From the NCBI GenBank assembly GCA_963581185.1, contig CAUZOB010000001.1, positions 14,826 through 78,825 on the forward strand: a stretch of DNA of 64,000 nt, given 5' to 3'. Numbering within the stretch: the first letter of the stretch is position 1; each line of letters starts with the position of its first letter. Shown one piece after another: positions 12,160 to 57,900 of the stretch. A model generated the notes under the pieces. That model saw nothing but the letters and a program-made list of their open reading frames with translations. It ran no database searches and was not told the DNA's origin. The translations under genes and the position numbers were made by a program. Source of the stretch: Planctomycetota bacterium (GTDB lineage Bacteria; Planctomycetota; Planctomycetia; Pirellulales; Pirellulaceae).

Positions 12160-12203
12160 GAGTGCTAGCCTTGATGATAACAGATAAGGATACCGGTTAC
12201 TGG

Positions 12204-12794
12204 TTAGAGGATCATCTCTGGTGGAACGAAGCCGCTGTCGCCGGACTGGGCGTCCAACTGGCTCCAGGTTTGTGACGATTCGGAGCGGATCAGTTCATAA
12301 AACAGTGACTTGTAAGTGATCAGTGTAGCTCCGGCTGCGTGCATTCGAGTGATCGCAGCGGAGACATCGAGAGCCGAGCTATAGATGGCATCCGAGATGA
12401 CAAACACCTGGAAGCGGCCGTCGATTAAATCCAGTACCGACTGCAGCACACAGACATCGGTTTCGCCACCGGCGATGATCAGTTGCGTGCGTTCTTCTTT
12501 ACCGATAGCCGACATGACTTCGAATTGACCACAGATGCTATATGTCGATTTCTCGAACAGCCGGCCGTCGGGCGGGAAGCGATTGTCCAGGCTGTCGGGC
12601 AATCCTCCTTTCTTGGCAACCGGTTTTTCCAGTGTGGCAATGACCGGGACGTCCACGAGCGGAGCCAGGATTAGCAGCTGTTCGAGTCGCTGAATCAGCG
12701 GCCGCATATTGTGTTCGGCCCGCTCGAGGAAATAAGGCTGAACGTCGACCAGCAGGATCAAAGCGGACGAGGGAGAGATCAGCAGTTCGGCCAA
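12204..12794 (-). CDS. Isochorismatase-family cysteine hydrolase
   Basis: 196 aa containing ALILLVDVQPYF and the catalytic-Cys region LIIAGGETDVCVLQSVLDL. The start codon is TTG (12794..12792) with GGAGGG 7 nt upstream. Confidence 0.85.
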   Translation of the reverse strand: MAELLISPSSALILLVDVQPYFLERAEHNMRPLIQRLEQLLILAPLVDVPVIATLEKPVAKKGGLPDSLDNRFPPDGRLFEKSTYSICGQFEVMSAIGKEERTQLIIAGGETDVCVLQSVLDLIDGRFQVFVISDAIYSSALDVSAAITRMHAAGATLITYKSLFYELIRSESSQTWSQLDAQSGDSGFVPPEMIL

Positions 12795-16276: not shown

Positions 16277-17653
16277 TCAGCGAGCGAGCGAGCCCATCGG
16301 GTCCCATGCAGGCAGCACGATGGGATCCTGTTGCCAGGCATCGAGCAGCTCGGCGGAGAGGTACTTTTTATTGGCGGCAATTTCGAACATGAACTCGTCA
16401 AACCATGAGTCATTCATGACATAGAAGCCCTTGCGGCCATTTTCTTCGCCCCAGCTGTTTTCCACGCGCCAGCGACGTGCCGCCTGGCTCCCATCGTTGT
16501 CCACCAGATCCACACCGGTGAATAACATGGCATGCGTCATCAAGGTCTCGTGATGGACAAGCCGATCGGCCTTGGGCATATCCAGGTCGGTGTCGTAGAC
16601 CCCCCTGTAGTCGTAGAGATCGACGTCCCAGATACCCTGGTCTCGCCGCATCATCTTGCCCACATCACAGCCCATCCAGACCGGCTGCTGATCCAGGATC
16701 GTGGAAATCGTCACCTGCTTCATGGTCTCAATGTCCACGTTCAGGTACTTGACCATATCGCCACCAACAACGTTACCGAGAAAATCGACGGTAAAAGTTC
16801 TGCCGACCGGGCTGGAGGGTCGGGGGTCATGGACCAGGCAGACATAGTCATCCAGCGGCTGTTCGATGTACTTGTCGGCAAACTGCCCAGGCGTCAGTGT
16901 GCCAGCCCGATTGAATTTTCGGTCCTTGTCGTTCCATTGCCAGTCAAACTCGGTCGGAGGCGTTCCCAGGTGAATGGCAAGAATCCGATAGACCTCGGAC
17001 ACCACCTGGTACTGTTGCTGGGCCAGGCTCTCTTGCGAATCACCATTGGCTGAAGCCTTCCTCAGCTGCATCGCTGCCTGTCGCAAGCGGGCCAACAGCA
17101 CCTCGTTCATTCGCCGGGTATTACTGGAGCTTTGCGATTCCGGCATGACCTCCTTGGGGACCACGCCGTGCTTCTTGATGATATTGGTGAACATGTTCCA
17201 CTGGCCGCCGTCGTCCAGCGGTTTGTCCAGCAGCCAGGCGACTGTGCGGTCATCGACTTCGCGGTCGGCGGTATCGAGGATACTTTGCAGGAAGTAGTTG
17301 GCCCGTTCCAGCTTGTCCCAGAAGAGCGTGTGATTCTGGCTGAACTCGAAATCCTTCAGATTCAAAGCGGCCATGGCTGCCGGACGGAAGAGATTCAAGC
17401 CGGCGAACATCCAGCAGCGACCACTTCGTTTCTGGTTGGTGACGCTCCAGTCATCCAGCAGGTGCGAAAAGGTGTGGCTGGTCGACGTTACGATATGGCG
17501 ATCGAGTGCCACATCGTCAATGCCCGTTTGCGTGACGGCGTTTTGCATCATCCGCGCTGTCGGATGCGAATCAAAGTCACTCCGCAACTGGGCCATTTGT
17601 CCGTCATCCAGAGAATGCTCAGACTGAGCCGCTGGTTGTGTTGTCGTCGCCAT
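16277..17653 (-). CDS. pepC: Aminopeptidase C / bleomycin hydrolase (C1-family cysteine peptidase)
   Basis: I prefer ATG 17653 (MATTTQPAAQSEHSLDDGQMAQLRSDF). The 16-aa track extension is simply the translated heptamer repeat. The active-site Cys context NQKRSGRCWMFAGLN and overall PepC-like length (458 aa) support the call. Confidence 0.9.
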   Translation of the reverse strand: MATTTQPAAQSEHSLDDGQMAQLRSDFDSHPTARMMQNAVTQTGIDDVALDRHIVTSTSHTFSHLLDDWSVTNQKRSGRCWMFAGLNLFRPAAMAALNLKDFEFSQNHTLFWDKLERANYFLQSILDTADREVDDRTVAWLLDKPLDDGGQWNMFTNIIKKHGVVPKEVMPESQSSSNTRRMNEVLLARLRQAAMQLRKASANGDSQESLAQQQYQVVSEVYRILAIHLGTPPTEFDWQWNDKDRKFNRAGTLTPGQFADKYIEQPLDDYVCLVHDPRPSSPVGRTFTVDFLGNVVGGDMVKYLNVDIETMKQVTISTILDQQPVWMGCDVGKMMRRDQGIWDVDLYDYRGVYDTDLDMPKADRLVHHETLMTHAMLFTGVDLVDNDGSQAARRWRVENSWGEENGRKGFYVMNDSWFDEFMFEIAANKKYLSAELLDAWQQDPIVLPAWDPMGSLAR

Positions 17654-17658
17654 AATCT

Positions 17659-17728
17659 GTAACCCGTAACCCGTAACCTGAAACCTGAAACCACTAACCA
17701 CTAACCACTAACCACTAACCACTAACTT
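17659..17728. repeat. Heptanucleotide tandem array, 10 units: GTAACCC x2, GTAACCT, GAAACCT, GAAACCA, CTAACCA x4, CTAACTT
   Basis: Read directly from the sequence. The array spans from 5 nt before the pepC ATG (on the minus strand) into the last 4 codons and the stop (TAG 17717..17715) of the upstream WD40 gene. Confidence 0.95.
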
Positions 17729-18851
17729 CTTCGGTCATCTGGTAGATGCGCAGGCTTCCGTCAAAGCATGCTGCGGCCAGGCGACGATTGTCGGCGGCCA
17801 GGTCGATACCGCGAATGCAGTCCAGAACCTTGGGCTCATCGACGTTCAAGGAATGGAAGGGCTTGAGGGCCAGCGGATCCTTGTCTGCCTGCCTCAGTTT
17901 CAAGTCACCCTCCTTTTCTTCCTTCTTGCTGACCTTGACCGGACTACTCGCTTCGTCCAGCTTCCAAAAACAGATCAGCCCGCTGCCACTCTGCTTGGCA
18001 ATTCCGCCGATAATGTAGCCATCGGGATGAAAACGGATTCCCCAGGCAACGCCGGTCGAATTGTCTTCCGGTCGCAAGTGACGCAGCACGGTACGCTTCT
18101 CCCAGTCAATCAGGCCAATGATCGGATCCTGTTGGCCGGCGAAGGAGTTGACGACGTTGGTGATACCAGCTGTTGCGACCAGCCTGCCGTCAGGGGAGAG
18201 TCGCATGTCACGTGCGCCACCCATATCGGCGGCAAACTTGTTGTCGTATCCGGTCATCACGGTGGCAATACTGGCAACCCGCTGAGCCGAGTCCAGGTCC
18301 CAGATAAAGACATTGCCCATCAAGTCCTGGGAGACCAGGTGCTTGCCGTCGGGATGAAAGTTGACCGCGTAGGGGTTCCGTTCATGCCCGGCCAATTCGG
18401 CAATCATCTCACCCACGTCCGCTCGCCAGACGCGGATCATGTTGTCATTGCCACAGGTCGCCAGCAGCGAGCCATCGGGGCTGACTCGAACCCAGCGAGC
18501 CGAGCCGACATGCGCGCGGACCATTCGCCGGGAGCGGGGCAGTGGATCGTCGGTTAGCCACCAGTGCAGCTCGCCATCCCAGCCGGCCGTGTAAAGCCAG
18601 TTGCCGTCGGGGGAAAAGTCCATCGAGCGGACCCAGCTGTTGTGGCCCGAGAGCATCATCTTGCGACCGCTGGAGAGATCCCAGCGGTAGACGTTCAGAT
18701 CCTCGGCTCCGGCAAAAACAAAACGCGAGAGTGGATCAAAGCGGCAGCAGGTGAGTGGCAGCTGGTGCTGGTAAGACGCCACCTTGTGAGTCTTGGTCAC
18801 ATCCAGCGGCAGGCTTGCCAGGTCGGTTGGTACTGCAGTTGGTTCGTTCAT
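17715..18851 (-). CDS. WD40 repeat protein
   Basis: 378 aa. Repeats include GHNSWVRSMDFSPDGNWLYTAGWDGELHWW, AHVGSARWVRVSPDGSLLATCGNDNMIRVWR and GHERNPYAVNFHPDGKHLVSQDLMGNVFIWD. Its ATG overlaps the DUF1501 stop (ATGA at 18851..18848). Confidence 0.85.
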   Translation of the reverse strand: MNEPTAVPTDLASLPLDVTKTHKVASYQHQLPLTCCRFDPLSRFVFAGAEDLNVYRWDLSSGRKMMLSGHNSWVRSMDFSPDGNWLYTAGWDGELHWWLTDDPLPRSRRMVRAHVGSARWVRVSPDGSLLATCGNDNMIRVWRADVGEMIAELAGHERNPYAVNFHPDGKHLVSQDLMGNVFIWDLDSAQRVASIATVMTGYDNKFAADMGGARDMRLSPDGRLVATAGITNVVNSFAGQQDPIIGLIDWEKRTVLRHLRPEDNSTGVAWGIRFHPDGYIIGGIAKQSGSGLICFWKLDEASSPVKVSKKEEKEGDLKLRQADKDPLALKPFHSLNVDEPKVLDCIRGIDLAADNRRLAAACFDGSLRIYQMTEEVSG

Positions 18852-20119
18852 GCCAGCAGCTCTTTGATCGGTTCGACCGCTGGATCACCGATCGGAATCT
18901 CACGACCGTCGATATCATGATTGGCAGTGGAGTCGATACCGAGTGCCTGCAGGTATGTATGGAAGAGGTGACCGCCGTGGACCTCGTGGTCCACCACTTC
19001 GGTCCCCTTGTCGTTGGTGGCACCAATCACCGCTCCGGTCTGAACGCCGCAGCCACCAAGTGCCATCGACCAGGCACTTCCCCAGTGATCGCGGCCATAA
19101 CGATGGTTGATCTTGGGGGTCCGGCCAAACTCGGAATAGACCATCACCAGCGTGCTCTCGAGCATGCCACTCTCCTCGAGATCACCCAGCAGGGTCGAGA
19201 AGGGTTGATCAAATTCACCCAGCTGTTCAACGTGAAAGTTGAAATTTTCGGCATGTGTATCGTAGCCATGGTGCGTGACCTTGACGCAGGTCGAACCCTC
19301 TTCCAGCAAGGTCCGGGCCATCAGGCAGTAGCGACCGAAATCGTGACGACCGTAACGGTCCAGCTGGTCTTCTGACTGCTTCTCAAACAAATCCTTGCGC
19401 GCCATCAACTGGGCTGCCTGGTTAAACGTCGCGTCGTAGGAATCGACCAGTGCCTTGGGGCGCCGTGAAGTGAATTGCTGATTCAGCTGGCTGCGGAAAT
19501 CGCGACGCCTGGAAAACTGCTGTTCACTCAGCTCCTGCTGACGGTCGAGGTTGTCCGGTGGGACGATGCCCTCGAGCCGCATTTGGGCGTAGCTGGATCC
19601 GAGGAAGCCAGCGGTATTGTCGGTCAGGCCGCGCGTTGAAATGTGGACGAAGCCGGGCAGGGGACTGTCGGTCGGTGCCAGGTACTTGTTCACCACCGAT
19701 CCGATATAAGGATAGGCACTCTCGCCCCGCCGACCCTTCTCCATGAACATGTGACCCTGGTGATGGTCGTCGGTGTTCAAGTTGATGCTGCGGACGACAG
19801 ATAGCAGGTGCATTTTCTGGGCAGTGTAAGGAAGCAGCTCGCAGATCCGCAGGCCCGGAACCGATGTCGGAATCGACTGGAAGGGACCGCCATACAGGGT
19901 CCCCGGCTTGGGATCCCAGGACTCCAGCTGGCTGACGCCGCCCTGCATGTAAATCTGCAGGATTCGCTTTTGGTCGGACTTCAGCGTGTCGGCCACCAGC
20001 TGGCTGGAGAAACCATCCAGTCCAGCCATTGCACCAGCTCCCAGGGCAGCTGTCCCAGCCAGAAAGTTTCGGCGCGAGTGGACATGATCCAGCGGATGAC
20101 AACCAGTATTCCGCTTCAT
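18848..20119 (-). CDS. DUF1501 domain protein (sulfatase/phosphatase-like fold, Tat signal)
   Basis: 423 aa with Tat-type N-terminus SRRNFLAGTAALGAGAMA. The characteristic C-terminal block is YSEFGRTPKINHRYGRDHWGSAWSMALGGCGVQTG. AGGAG lies 8 nt upstream of the ATG. Confidence 0.9.
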   Translation of the reverse strand: MKRNTGCHPLDHVHSRRNFLAGTAALGAGAMAGLDGFSSQLVADTLKSDQKRILQIYMQGGVSQLESWDPKPGTLYGGPFQSIPTSVPGLRICELLPYTAQKMHLLSVVRSINLNTDDHHQGHMFMEKGRRGESAYPYIGSVVNKYLAPTDSPLPGFVHISTRGLTDNTAGFLGSSYAQMRLEGIVPPDNLDRQQELSEQQFSRRRDFRSQLNQQFTSRRPKALVDSYDATFNQAAQLMARKDLFEKQSEDQLDRYGRHDFGRYCLMARTLLEEGSTCVKVTHHGYDTHAENFNFHVEQLGEFDQPFSTLLGDLEESGMLESTLVMVYSEFGRTPKINHRYGRDHWGSAWSMALGGCGVQTGAVIGATNDKGTEVVDHEVHGGHLFHTYLQALGIDSTANHDIDGREIPIGDPAVEPIKELLA

Positions 20120-20164: not shown

Positions 20165-21829
20165 CTAGTGATTAAATCGGAACTCGGCTGAACACAGTAT
20201 AGCCCGAGTTGCCTGGGCCAAGCCAGTTAAACGATCAGCAGCGAATGTATCCAGGAATTGAGCCATGGCCTGCCGCTCTTCGTCACGAGCTGGGCGCGAC
20301 AGGACAACCAGGTACAGAGTGCTAATTGCGTCGTCGTTGGAAGCGGTCGCGTTCAATTGATCCAGCAAGTTGCCGTTGGCTGGCTCAAGCCAGCTGCTGA
20401 GCAGCTCGTTGTTCTCCAGGAACAAGGCCTGCTTGGCCGTGGGGCCGAAGGCCGAATTGGCAGAAGCGAAGACGTCAATGTAAGTAGTAACATGACTCTC
20501 CAGGGCCTTGTGGACGGCACGTTCCAGTTGCAGTGCCTGGTCCGCCTGCGCGGGGTCAAAGCCCTCGTTGTCCGCCGTCAGCTTGGCAAGCTCTGCCTGC
20601 CTGGTCTGCTCGATCAAGCCAACCGCCTGCATAGTCGACCAGGCCAGCTGTTCAGGGGTCAGTGGCTTGAGCGCGGAGCTGAGGTACAGCTGGGCTGCCG
20701 GGTCGCTCGCGTCCGCAGCCACTTCGCTACTCAACTGGTAGGTCTTGCTGAGTACCAGCTGGCGGACCAGGTAGCGGATATCGTAGTCGTGGTCGCGGAG
20801 GTCGTTTGCCAGCAGGTCCAGTAACTCTGGATGGGAGGGCGGATTGTCGGCGTGCATCATGTCGAGCGGCTCCACAAGGCCGCGTCCCATCACCAGCGCC
20901 CAGAGCCTGTTAGCAATGTTCAACCGAAAAGCGGCGTTGTCATCGGCGATCATGGCCGGTGCCAGTTGCTGCCGGCGACTGTAACGCGGCACTCCGCGAG
21001 CCTTGTTGTCCGGCTTGGTCACGTACGGATCCTCGGCCGGCTTGGGATCCTCGATGGCTGGCAAATTAAGCAACTTCGGGACCGTGCTGTTCTCCTCGTT
21101 GGTGAAGACCGAGGTGAACTTCACGTCTCCTTCCGCTTTCTCACCGATCGAGGCCAGCTTGGAGTCCGGATCGGTGAACAGGTAGCTGCGTTTAATGAAG
21201 GCACTCAGGCCATAGTAATGCTGCTGAGGATAGTCGCCGATCGAGGGATGATCATGACATTGTGCACATTGCAGATCGCGGCCAAGGAAGAAACGGCCGA
21301 TGTCCCGTACCGTTTCGTCGACGTTGAGATTCCGGTCCAGCAGGAAGCGGGCCTGCCCTCGCGTGGCCTGCTCAGCACCGTCCGCTGATAACAACTCGCT
21401 CGCCAGCTGCTTCCAGGATTTATTCTGCAGGAAGGAACTGAACAGATAGTCCTGCCAGGCAGTCGGCTCGACATGTTTCTTCGGCAGCCGCTGCATCAAC
21501 ATCACGTCGAAAGTATGTTGCAAGCGAAGTGCATGCTGGGGAGTCGACAGCAGCTGATCGACCAGTTGTTCTCGCCGGTTGTCGGCGGGATTATTGAGGA
21601 ATTCCTGGACTGCAGGGTGAGTCGGAATTCGGCCGGTCAAGTCGAGGTAGAGTCGCCGAACAAACTCAGTGTCGCTGGCTGGCGCTGCTAGCGTGTCCGC
21701 CATCTCACCCTGGGTTGCACGCACCAGCTGGTCAATTCGCTGGTGCAGCGGCGGCAGGTCCTGGGCCGGCGCGGACTGTACCAGCAGCGCAGCGATAAGG
21801 AGACCGAGCAATGGCATGGAATTTTTCAT
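20165..21829 (-). CDS. DUF1549/DUF1553 domain protein (no N-terminal cytochrome domain)
   Basis: 554 aa with a signal peptide. It carries the signature FVRRLYLDLTGRIPT and CAQCHDHPSIGDYPQQHYYGLSAF. Its C-terminus ends ...AILCSAEFRFNH, typical of this family. It lies immediately upstream of a DUF1501 gene. Confidence 0.9.
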   Translation of the reverse strand: MKNSMPLLGLLIAALLVQSAPAQDLPPLHQRIDQLVRATQGEMADTLAAPASDTEFVRRLYLDLTGRIPTHPAVQEFLNNPADNRREQLVDQLLSTPQHALRLQHTFDVMLMQRLPKKHVEPTAWQDYLFSSFLQNKSWKQLASELLSADGAEQATRGQARFLLDRNLNVDETVRDIGRFFLGRDLQCAQCHDHPSIGDYPQQHYYGLSAFIKRSYLFTDPDSKLASIGEKAEGDVKFTSVFTNEENSTVPKLLNLPAIEDPKPAEDPYVTKPDNKARGVPRYSRRQQLAPAMIADDNAAFRLNIANRLWALVMGRGLVEPLDMMHADNPPSHPELLDLLANDLRDHDYDIRYLVRQLVLSKTYQLSSEVAADASDPAAQLYLSSALKPLTPEQLAWSTMQAVGLIEQTRQAELAKLTADNEGFDPAQADQALQLERAVHKALESHVTTYIDVFASANSAFGPTAKQALFLENNELLSSWLEPANGNLLDQLNATASNDDAISTLYLVVLSRPARDEERQAMAQFLDTFAADRLTGLAQATRAILCSAEFRFNH

Positions 21830-54921: not shown

Positions 54922-54931
54922 AGGTTGCAGG

Positions 54932-57900
54932 TTACCGCTTGGCCTGCAGGATCAGGCCGGCATAGCCCACCACGCGACTACTGTCGCCACTCACGTCTGC
55001 ACTGGTGGTATAGCCGACCTGGCTGCAGGAACCGAGCTGGCCCAGTTGCCGCAGGCACTGCATCACGATCACGGCAGGCCGCATGCCACACATGCTGATC
55101 TCTTTCTCTGTGACCGTTTCGTAAAGCTGAGCTGGATCCAGCGACTCCATCGCCGCCAGCGCGAGTGCGTCGACCTGGCGCGTCCGCTTGTCATTCGCAA
55201 AGTGATTCATGTCACTGGAGATGACCAGCAACGGCTGCTGCGGCAACGTGCCCAGCACGCCTGCCAGCTGATCTCCAAGGCCCTGGCAATCTGCCAGGCT
55301 GGCGTTGCCCACGGCGATTCCCACCACCCGTGTCTTCGGTGCCAGGCGCGATAGCAGCGGCAACTCAATTTCTATCCCATGTTCGTTTCGATGTGCCGCT
55401 TCATCCAGCTCCAGGCCGTCAATGCTGTCGGCCAGCACCTGGGCCAGTTCCATATCTGTCTCGATACGCTTTCCTGGAATGGACCAGGCGGCGTGTGGAT
55501 CGATCGCCCAGTCCGCCCCGAGTGGGGTGTGCTTGGGACTAATAATGATCACGGTGGAAGGGATCTCGACCCGCTTCAGTACATCGGCGGCCAGGCGGCC
55601 GGAAAAGACCAGCCCGGCATGCGGGACCATGACTGCCGCGGCAGCCATTTTTTCGTCGGGAATATCTCCCAGCAGATCGTCGGTCATGGCCGCCAGCTCG
55701 TCAGCGTCGCCGGGATAAAAACGTCCTGCCACGGCTGCAGCCCGGGTTGAGTTGTCATTCTCCTGGCTGGCCTGTCGCAGCATGCTGAATCGGAATGGGC
55801 TGGTCGTTGAAGCGCTGCGATAGCTGACCAGCTGCCAGTCCTTGAGGTGTGTGACCTTGGCGAGTTCACTCAGTTCATCGACGCCTTGTTGTGCTGACTG
55901 ACCGCGGTCGCTCAGCCAGGCACTCTGCTCACCGTCACTGATCACGATCGCTCGCTGTTGATCGATGGCGGCGGGATCGGCCGTCTCCAGGCTGCCGTGC
56001 GGAATTGGATCTTCCAGCAACAGTAGCTGTGGCTGCATCTGCTCAACGAATTGCCGTTTCACGTCCTGGCGGCCAAGAGCTCTGGCAAGGTTTTCAACCA
56101 GCTGGAACAAGGTGGCTTGTAGGGGAACCTTGTTGCCCGCTGAGAGTCGGCCTGATTGGATCGTCCCACCGCTGCCAGGGTCGGTCAGCTGCAGGGCAAG
56201 ACCGTGGATCATCATGTCCGGGCAGTTAGTGAGGTAATAGTTGGGAGTCGCACCAGCGATCAGTGCTGCCAGGTTCTGGCGGCTGTGGTCGGCCAGCGCA
56301 CTCAGCTCAGCTGGCTGCAGGAGGGCGGAATCGTCGATTGAGATTAGCACGCTGGTATCCCAGGCTGCCTCGATCACCTGGACTTCGAAAGTTTGCAGGC
56401 TGGCATCGTCCTGCTGCCAGGCATCTTCCGGCAGGCCGGCCTTGTGGCACACCCGTCGCAGGAACTGCTCGCTGTCCCAACCGAAGTCAACCGCCACGAC
56501 CGGAAGCAGCAGGCCACTCTTGTTACCCTGTCGGATGACCAGCCCGTGGTGACCTACCTGGATCACACTCTGGCGCTGGTCGGCGGGGATATCGACAGGC
56601 TGAAAATTGTGCAGCAGGGATATATCGACTTTCAGGCCCTCCAGTTCGGCTGGCGAAATGGGCGGAAAACGTCGATCTCGAGTTGCGGTGCTGACGGCAG
56701 CCTGTTGAAGCGCGTCGGCCAGCGAAAATGGTCGGTTCAATACCCCGCAACAGGCGCGCAACTGTTGGTCCTTCTTGAGCGTTACGAAGCAGCCCATCAC
56801 GGTCGAATCGGCTGCTGGACCAAGTGCATCTGCCAGGTCCGGGGAGGCGTCGCCTACGACTGCCTTAGCCAGCAGCTGGCAGGTGGCGCGGTGAACCCGC
56901 TGCTGGTCTGGTTCAGACAGCGGGCTGAAATCGGTATTGGGACTCGCCGATTGTGGCGAGTCAGCGGAAGAGGACATGGCGGGGTCCTGTAGTCGAGGAT
57001 TTGGCTTACTGGCGTAGTCCTGGATTCGCACGGGCTGGCGTTTACGGCCCCAGTCGCCGGGCTGGTCAGCAAATCGGCCGGCAACCTGGTGTCCACATTG
57101 GCCACACCTGTTGCCATCCAGCTGGTAGCTACCGAGCTCGTACCAATCTCGTTGAATCAGCAGCGTACTGCAGGACGGACAGTAAGTGCTCTGGTGCTGT
57201 TCGTCGTTGACATTGCCGACGTAAGCGTGACGTATTCCCTGTTCTTTCGCCAGCGAATGTGCACGTAGCAGCGTTTCGTGCGGCGTACGCGGCTTGTCGG
57301 TCATCCGGTAGTCGGGATGAAAAGCAGAAAAATGGACCGGCACGTCGTCCCCCAGGTTGGCCAGGATCCAGTCCACCATCCTGGAGAGTTCGTCGTCGCT
57401 GTCGTTTTCTCCAGGAATGATCAGGTTGGTAATCTCGAACCAGGTATCGCTTTCATCCGCCAGCCACTTGAGCGTGTCGAGTACAGGTTGCATGTGAGAG
57501 AGCGTGATCAGTCGATAGAAATCTTCGTTGAAAGCCTTGAGGTCGACGTTGGCTGCATCCATCACCTCAAAGAAGGGCTGACGAGCCGCTTCGGATATGT
57601 AACCTGCTGTGACCGCCACGGTCTTGATCCCCCGCTGGTGGCAGGCACGGGCTACATCGATTGCATATTCGGCCCAGATGACGGGGTCGTTGTAGGTGAA
57701 AGCCACACTCTGGCAACCGAGTTGCAGCGCTGCTTCGGCAATCGTCTCCGGGGTCGCTTCCTCACTCAGCTGTCGGATTTCCCGCGACTTGGAGATATCC
57801 CAGTTCTGGCAGAACTTGCAGCCCAGGTTGCAGCCAGCAGTACCGAAGGAGAGCACGCTGGTTCCAGGGTAAAAGTGGTTGAGCGGCTTTTTCTCGATCG

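Follow-up and report, generated by a model that had tools for sequence, protein, structure and literature searches.

The spacer between a gene for a WD40 beta-propeller protein and the pepC-type gene that follows it, in a genome of the Pirellulaceae, is filled from the stop codon of the first gene to the start codon of the second by a tandem array of seven-nucleotide units; the question that this locus raises is whether such an array has a dedicated role in the expression of its neighbours, or is a repeat that the site tolerates. The array is located in a window (i.e. the whole stretch of DNA that has been analysed) of 64,000 nt, which belongs to a metagenome-assembled genome (MAG) of 5.06 Mb, in 367 contigs and with 58% G+C.

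On the plus strand, positions 17659-17728 hold exactly the ten heptamer units that the preliminary description had listed, letter by letter upon re-inspection, and TRF reports two overlapping rows of period 7, at 17653-17692 (score 45) and at 17689-17726 (100% matches, score 76). We have set the phase of the units to the one that fits the other arrays of the genome, GGTTNNN, and in this phase the minus strand, which is the coding strand, reads AGTTAGT (GGTTAGT)4 (GGTTTCA)2 (GGTTACG)2 GGTTACA GATTATG from 17727 down to 17651, i.e. 11 units and 77 nt, head to tail, with a period of exactly 7 nt both by TRF and by the phase of the 11 units. The ten units therefore stand, but their boundary does not, since an eleventh, degenerate unit, GATTATG (17651..17657, minus strand), extends the array to 17651-17727 and carries the start codon of pepC (ATG, 17653-17651); for the same reason, the array is indeed the whole leader of pepC, but it does not end 5 nt before the ATG, as had been proposed. 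Preceding this last unit are an invariant mixed block, (GGTTTCA)2 (GGTTACG)2 GGTTACA (17658..17692, minus strand), which is the same in each of the six assemblies covering the spacer, and a pure tract, AGTTAGT (GGTTAGT)4 (17693..17727, minus strand), which is variable and whose first full unit includes the stop codon of the WD40 gene (TAG, 17717-17715). The WD40 reading frame thus ends in a TAG of the array, as had been described; a TAG in every unit, which had been described as well, is not found, as only the five TTAG units contain one, and the GGTTTCA and GGTTACG/A units have no stop. The graded series of units is real, and is the expected product of stepwise mutation plus slippage.

The WD40 gene (17715..18851, minus strand) encodes 378 aa, and array sequence provides its stop together with the three codons before it (VSG*). 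The gene that follows (16277..17653, minus strand) encodes 458 aa of the pepC-type aminopeptidase C / bleomycin hydrolase family (Peptidase_C1_2, E = 6e-173); its closest public relatives occur in Pirellulaceae MAGs, at 72-73% amino-acid identity. Upstream of the WD40 gene, and co-directional with it, are a DUF1501 gene (18848-20119, minus strand), whose stop shares 4 nt with the WD40 start, and a PSCyt2/PSD1 gene (20165-21829, minus strand); PSCyt2/PSD1 and DUF1501 genes form a typical planctomycete pair. Between the WD40 gene and pepC, the scans predict neither a sigma-70-like promoter nor an intrinsic terminator, in a test that is a weak one for a planctomycete. Because the four genes share the minus orientation, DUF1501 and WD40 overlap, and neither promoter nor terminator is predicted, the array probably lies within a PSCyt/PSD-DUF1501-WD40-pepC transcription unit and is read through by the operon.

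The start of pepC at ATG 17653 agrees with two same-genus orthologues, which begin with ATGGCG or ATGGCA at this position; an N-terminal extension from GTG 17701 through the array has been rejected, as a 7-nt difference between alleles shifts its frame and the orthologues start at the ATG. A Shine-Dalgarno core is absent at this start, as it is for most genes of this genome, where an SD-like core is found at about 28% of the starts of long ORFs against a background of 10%; translation of pepC, which is in this respect like most genes here, is compatible with an open, G/U-rich leader. Such an open leader is what the folding predicts: 194 of 200 dinucleotide shuffles fold at least as well as the sense leader RNA (z = +1.77), by which a leader hairpin or attenuator has been rejected, and the idea that unit number would alter the structure of the pepC leader fails, since there is no structure to alter. 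ViennaRNA with G-quadruplex energies predicts no G-quadruplex in the array, and the variable tract contains only GG runs, separated by 5 nt, and no four tracts of G3 or longer. No Rfam family is found in or near the array, the sole match being a sub-threshold, chance snoRNA inside the WD40 gene.

The exact pepC and WD40 proteins are also encoded on contigs of other metagenome assemblies, five of which span the spacer and form, together with the window, a set of six assemblies (n=6) from which the lengths of the array have been read. After the first AGTTAGT, the window has four GGTTAGT units (spacer of 61 nt), one contig, L097, has three (54 nt), and four contigs (L095, L098, L099 and L100) have one (40 nt); a further contig, L096, begins inside the array, and look-ups with the neighbouring proteins have returned no additional array alleles. 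Outside the GGTTAGT tract, the array is identical in all six assemblies, and the flanks show no difference in 2,494 nt (1,117 upstream and 1,377 downstream) between any two of them. Since the flanks are free of substitutions while the tract varies, the tract changes much faster than point substitution. The unit counts across samples, which it had been advised to compare, are thus 1, 3 and 4 GGTTAGT units at the level of assemblies, and the anticipated expansion and contraction by whole 7-nt units is seen as three length alleles on DNA-identical flanks in six assemblies. Also as anticipated, the spacing of the two genes changes without a frameshift: 40, 54 or 61 nt separate the stop of WD40 from the start of pepC, with both frames untouched. 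The last residues of the WD40 protein, which had been expected to change too, do not: with the stop located in the first full unit, the protein has the same 378 aa in every allele, and both the WD40 and the pepC proteins are identical across alleles. In natural populations, units of the pure GGTTAGT tract are thus gained and lost whole, in a manner that fits replication slippage, which would be the generator of the length variation.

Variation of this kind is not confined to the pepC site. The contig ends C14:39845-39994 and C293:4440-4590 of the same MAG share an overlap of 151 nt, in which the only differences fall within a heptamer array that reads (GGTTCCG)2(GGTTTCG)4 in one allele and (GGTTCCG)3(GGTTTCG)3 in the other; both alleles also occur in other metagenomes, and, the two ends differing only there, it is the array that has forked the assembly of this MAG. 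These alleles agree with slippage, and so does an impure hairpin array at another locus, on contig C119, which is invariant in five assemblies. The exception is a locus on contig C31, where a pure tract of four units shows no length variation across nine assemblies; therefore, the purity of a tract alone does not predict its variation.

We have compared two other same-genus genomes, G001 (locus L002) and G002 (locus L001), both of which keep the order DUF1501-WD40-pepC without an array at the site; the three-unit GGTT pattern has 0 and 1 matches in these two genomes against 25 here. The array being absent from both, it has grown or arrived after the split of the species. The spacer between the WD40 gene and pepC is 107 nt in L002, where the stop context of the WD40 gene, GGC TAG TGGTTCG, amounts to a two-unit proto-repeat at the homologous position, possibly the seed from which the array has grown. 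The WD40 tail of the array-bearing genome is 10-13 aa shorter than those of the two orthologues, whose tails are of low complexity. Upstream of pepC, at a distance of about 60-100 nt, both relatives have a conserved block of roughly 33 nt, ATGGGCAGGGCAGCCAGRACTCGGGTAAAATCA (L001:3917-3950 and L002:3901-3934), which may be a promoter or regulatory element of pepC; neither the window nor the rest of the array-bearing MAG contains it. The array would thus have displaced the old spacer, the ATGGGCAGGGCAGCCAGRACTCGGGTAAAATCA block included, together with the low-complexity end of the WD40 protein. In G002, an ORF of 227 aa that resembles a membrane protein (L001:3046-3729, minus) lies on the opposite strand between the WD40 gene and pepC, and the ATGGGCAGGGCAGCCAGRACTCGGGTAAAATCA block is retained despite the extra gene; thus, the WD40-pepC junction is a site of repeated rearrangement in the genus.

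The preliminary description had seen nothing similar elsewhere in the 64 kb. Two weak relatives are in fact present in the window, with three to four units each, of which two have the exact core: an intergenic array at 12188..12215 on the plus strand (GGATACC GGTTACT GGTTAGA GGATCAT), and a short, degenerate GGTTNNN array at 54923-54943. The array is likewise no one-off of the WD40-pepC pair; it belongs to a genome-wide family of about 25 arrays, with a wide occurrence in the order. We count 12 arrays in the genome in which the GGTT core recurs at period 7 with at least three exact units, the median for all 256 four-mers being 1, while at periods 6, 8 and 9 the same core occurs 1, 2 and 3 times, respectively; the reversed-pattern control has 0-1 matches against 25 for the three-unit GGTT pattern. 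A looser search, which allows one mismatch per core, has returned 48 arrays, and we have kept the 25 of them with at least three exact or at least four total units. Of these, 23 are located outside the interiors of ORFs, the crude ORF calls covering about 92% of the genome. The units of the family are GGTTACA, GGTTACG, GGTTAGT, GGTTAGG, GGTTAGA, GGTTTCA, GGTTTCG and GGTTCCG. A generic scan for periods has found eight arrays of at least four units at period 7, seven of which are intergenic, none at periods 8, 10 and 11, and ten at period 5, only two of which are intergenic; among the longer periods not divisible by 3, it is period 7 that is conspicuous. An unrelated heptamer forms the genome's longest pure heptamer tract, a perfect (AGGAACG)7 at C310:1800-1849 (TRF score 100).

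The positions of the arrays relative to genes show a pattern. All 11 arrays with the G-rich strand in sense that lie downstream of a gene begin 0-7 nt from the stop codon of that gene; the orientation preference in this genome, 12 against 6, is not significant alone (p = 0.24). The genes that flank the other arrays encode an RND transporter, a Laminin_G_3 protein and a glycosyltransferase, among others. Several arrays form inverted pairs, (GGTTNNN)n followed by (NNNAACC)n, that fold as imperfect hairpins, such as those on contigs C22 (-41.8 kcal/mol, z = -3.6) and C119, while the one-directional arrays at the pepC site and on contig C31 are unusually unstructured (z = +3.0 and +1.8). The locus on contig C31 (C31:11385-11433) repeats the layout of the pepC site: a gene for an RND transporter ends in the array, and the array leads to the start of a Laminin_G_3 gene. 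The array at C31 ends with the same 14-mer, GGTTACAGATTATG, as the array at the pepC site, on contig C1; both end in GGTTACAGATT-ATG, and both have the same polarity, with GGTTAGT-type units first and GGTTACA-type units last. At the C31 locus (loci L101-L108), the last unit is GGTTATG instead of GATTATG in one sample; therefore, the start codon is located in phase, within a unit.

Across the order, the four-unit GGTTNNN pattern is absent from 28 of 41 Pirellulales genomes, and a few genomes are rich in it, with 308 (G029), 262 (G039), 223 (G013), 45 (G017) and 31 (G023) four-unit matches. Each array-rich genome has its own dominant units, e.g. GGTTAGA, GGTTAGG, GGTTCAG, GGTTCGG and GGTTGGA, and graded arrays of other heptamers occur in these genomes too. 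At 17 loci of G029, as we read them, the G-rich arms directly follow stop codons and the C-rich arms directly precede start codons, in nearly all intergenic cases. As a side observation, G029 (L109-L125), G013, G017 and G039 hold several families of units, (TTGGTCA)n and (GGTCGGA)n among them beside the GGTTAGA types, and the arrays of array-rich genomes are often inverted pairs at gene boundaries. A loss of mismatch repair has been rejected as the source of array richness, as MutL is present in 40 of the 41 genomes, whether array-rich or array-free.

In cyanobacteria, knowledge of heptamer repeats goes back to about 1990. In our full-text literature search, no paper has been found that describes heptanucleotide or heptameric repeats in Planctomycetes. 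One of the closest precedents is that of Rehm et al. 2015, who have described the heptamers GGGAATC and GGGGA(C/T)T in Xanthomonas and Nostoc as dispersed, non-coding and preferentially located between aligned ORFs, mostly transcribed, highly variable in length between close relatives, without a link to phase-variable, surface or virulence genes, and of unknown function (PMC4692102). The GGTTNNN arrays resemble these repeats in being 7-nt, head-to-tail, dispersed over the genome and strongly non-coding, in lying between aligned ORFs with the G-rich strand coding and 0-50 bp from a stop codon or overlapping it (here, the WD40 stop is overlapped), and in varying in length between close relatives; they differ in their core, GGTT, which has only GG runs and no predicted G-quadruplex, in their far fewer copies (about 25 loci), in showing no preference for four units, and in their planctomycete host. 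Another is that of MacGregor 2015, who has described TAACTGA arrays directly upstream of start codons that lack a Shine-Dalgarno sequence in marine Beggiatoaceae, Cyanobacteria and Bacteroidetes, with no predicted RNA structure and with stops in all frames, and has proposed a binding protein (PMC4679880). Here too, heptamer arrays run up to within a few nucleotides of start codons without a Shine-Dalgarno sequence, no RNA structure is predicted, the phylogenetic distribution is patchy, and stops in three frames of one orientation allow only a brief overlap with the ends of genes; the unit is a different one, several unit variants coexist in one array, and most arrays are anchored at stop and not at start codons.

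More generally, heptamers are over-represented among the long simple-sequence repeats (SSRs) of bacteria, and have been proposed to be especially prone to polymerase slippage (Mrazek 2007, as cited in PMC4692102 and PMC4679880); the excess could stem from about 7 nt interacting with the polymerase, according to the 2007 study as cited in PMC4692102. The STRR heptanucleotides of Calothrix PCC 7601 and heterocystous cyanobacteria, as cited in the same two papers, share with our arrays, as far as these citations describe them, the presence of several related families per genome, the tandem and dispersed arrangement and slippage as the proposed origin, and differ in phylum and in units. By its 7-nt unit, its many loci, its non-coding bias and its variation in unit number, the array at the pepC site belongs to the dispersed intergenic heptamer class, all of whose positional and dynamic features it has; it is a natural example, in a new phylum and in a marine planctomycete, of a class that is known and unexplained, in which one haplotype with no flanking substitution carries three copy-number alleles of an array that occupies exactly the interval between a stop codon and the start codon that follows. 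Moreover, the position rule of Xanthomonas and Nostoc (the G-rich strand in sense, right after stop codons) holds in Pirellulales for a unit that does not form a G-quadruplex; as the rule holds without G3 tracts, it argues against the G-quadruplex as a general explanation of the class.

We consider it probable, though by a good way short of certain, that the array is a hypermutable heptanucleotide simple-sequence repeat of the dispersed STRR / long-SSR class, i.e. a tolerated filler without a dedicated regulatory role. Under this explanation, the array would have replaced the ancestral spacer and the tail of the WD40 gene, which it would now supply with a stop codon; single substitutions, followed by local amplification, have produced the graded composition of the units, and only the pure tract varies, the mixed units beside it being stable. 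The array would run in phase up to the ATG of pepC, where purifying selection on coding sequences would halt its spread, and it would be transcribed as an unstructured, G/U-rich intercistronic spacer. Nothing more would be required of it than a stop for the upstream frame and an accessible SD-less start for pepC, and both would hold at every observed copy number. Neutral slippage leaves unexplained the recurrence of the GGTT core at about 25 loci, the shared GGTTACAGATT-ATG end of the arrays at C1 and C31, and the polarity of array-rich relatives, where G-rich arms follow stops and C-rich arms precede starts.

A dedicated regulatory role of the array, or an effect on the expression of pepC, appears unlikely, and this holds for the explanation according to which the array is a tuning or contingency locus. 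Here, unit number would set pepC expression through the stop-start distance, by way of re-initiation or coupling, or through the length of a ribosome standby platform, and the population would carry heritable, reversible expression variants. The three length alleles on identical backgrounds speak for this explanation, as does the fact that an SD-less start has no leader here other than the array; furthermore, since the ATGGGCAGGGCAGCCAGRACTCGGGTAAAATCA block is missing here, pepC probably relies on read-through from the WD40 gene. There is also a precedent in the AGAT repeats of the 5' UTR of Moraxella uspA2, where repeat number affects expression, as cited in PMC4679880; to the extent that the citation describes it, this contingency locus resembles ours in its slippage-driven copy-number polymorphism within a leader, the transcription of which is probable in our case. 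The differences from SSR contingency loci are that the unit is of 7 nt, that the array is neither inside a reading frame nor between promoter hexamers, and that the neighbour is a cytoplasmic, housekeeping-type peptidase and not a surface or restriction-modification gene. What phase variation would call for is not found: unit number switches neither a reading frame nor the spacing of a predicted promoter, and the neighbours are a WD40 and a Peptidase_C1_2 gene and not surface, antigen or restriction-modification genes. Moreover, the genes beside other arrays of the family are unrelated, every spacer, at 40-61 nt, is long for two genes to be tightly coupled, no RNA structure exists that could be modulated, the array is absent from the two other same-genus genomes, and phase variation has been judged unlikely for the analogous class by Rehm et al. 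(PMC4692102).

It is likewise improbable that the GGTTNNN arrays form a track of RNA or DNA sites for a sequence-specific protein, in a post-transcriptional or nucleoid-level network such as has been suggested for the TAACTGA repeats of Beggiatoaceae. The recurrence of one 4-nt core at about 25 loci in strict 7-nt spacing, the defined positions at stops and starts, and the terminal 14-mer common to C1 and C31 would all suit such a protein, and the patchy occurrence across the families of the order is compatible with a mobile binding factor, an idea that comes from PMC4679880. Yet no candidate protein has been identified, conservation of the arrays from species to species within the genus is not seen, positions 5-7 of the unit drift freely, the core itself differs between genomes, and copy number varies without visible constraint. 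A bolder variant, to which we give little credence, would make the arrays functional punctuation: a factor that reads in steps of 7 nt would hand ribosomes or RNA polymerase from cistron to cistron, and slippage would heritably vary the ratio of pepC to WD40. This variant would rest on the phase anchoring of C1 and C31, where TAG falls in GGTTAGT and ATG in GGTTATG or GATTATG.

There is a slim chance that the array did not grow in place but is a footprint, or a piece, of a small mobile element that had heptamer repeats as its arms and was inserted between the genes. The polarity and the GGTTACAGATT-ATG end that C1 and C31 share could be read in this way, and the inverted pairs of several loci fold as hairpins in the manner of MITEs (C22, z = -3.6); against this, no match to PF05635 (23S-IVS-protein) exists in the whole genome, the arrays are surrounded by neither target-site duplications nor shared non-repeat sequence, the two-unit proto-repeat exactly at the WD40 stop of one same-genus genome points to growth in place, and the analogous repeats of Rehm et al. 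have no association with mobile elements (PMC4692102). Very improbable is a G-quadruplex element that, in the manner of the GGGNATC repeats known from Xanthomonas and Nostoc, would affect transcription or translation: the position, with the G-rich strand in sense directly after a stop and between aligned ORFs, is the one that the G-quadruplex class prefers (PMC4692102), and other Pirellulales arrays do have G3-G4 tracts (e.g. GGGTTCA and GGGGTTA), but the GG runs of the variable tract are 5 nt apart, the fold with G-quadruplex energies contains none, and several members of the family are counted as lacking G runs (e.g. GGTTATC and ATTTTTC).

Lastly, it is hardly credible that the length differences are artefacts from the collapse of a short tandem repeat in assembly, even though the alleles rest on assemblies and contigs do break at arrays (L096, C14/C293 and several contig ends of G029), since the array (51-72 nt between anchors) is shorter than typical reads, which makes collapse by the assembler unlikely, and does not reach the largest k in assemblies of the k141 type, the short allele has been recovered four times independently through different pipelines (JGI, ENA and Logan), and all differences are exact multiples of 7 confined to the pure tract.

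For practical work, it matters that heptamer arrays break short-read assemblies of planctomycete MAGs. Among the array-rich genomes, several contigs end in arrays longer than 100 nt. Of the five genomes richest in arrays, four consist of 290-1510 contigs, and the remaining one, G023 (31 matches), of only about 20; the single-contig genomes G012, G015, G018, G021 and G035 have no four-unit GGTTNNN array. Either short-read assemblies are broken up by the arrays, or it is by chance that the lineages for which closed genomes exist have none.
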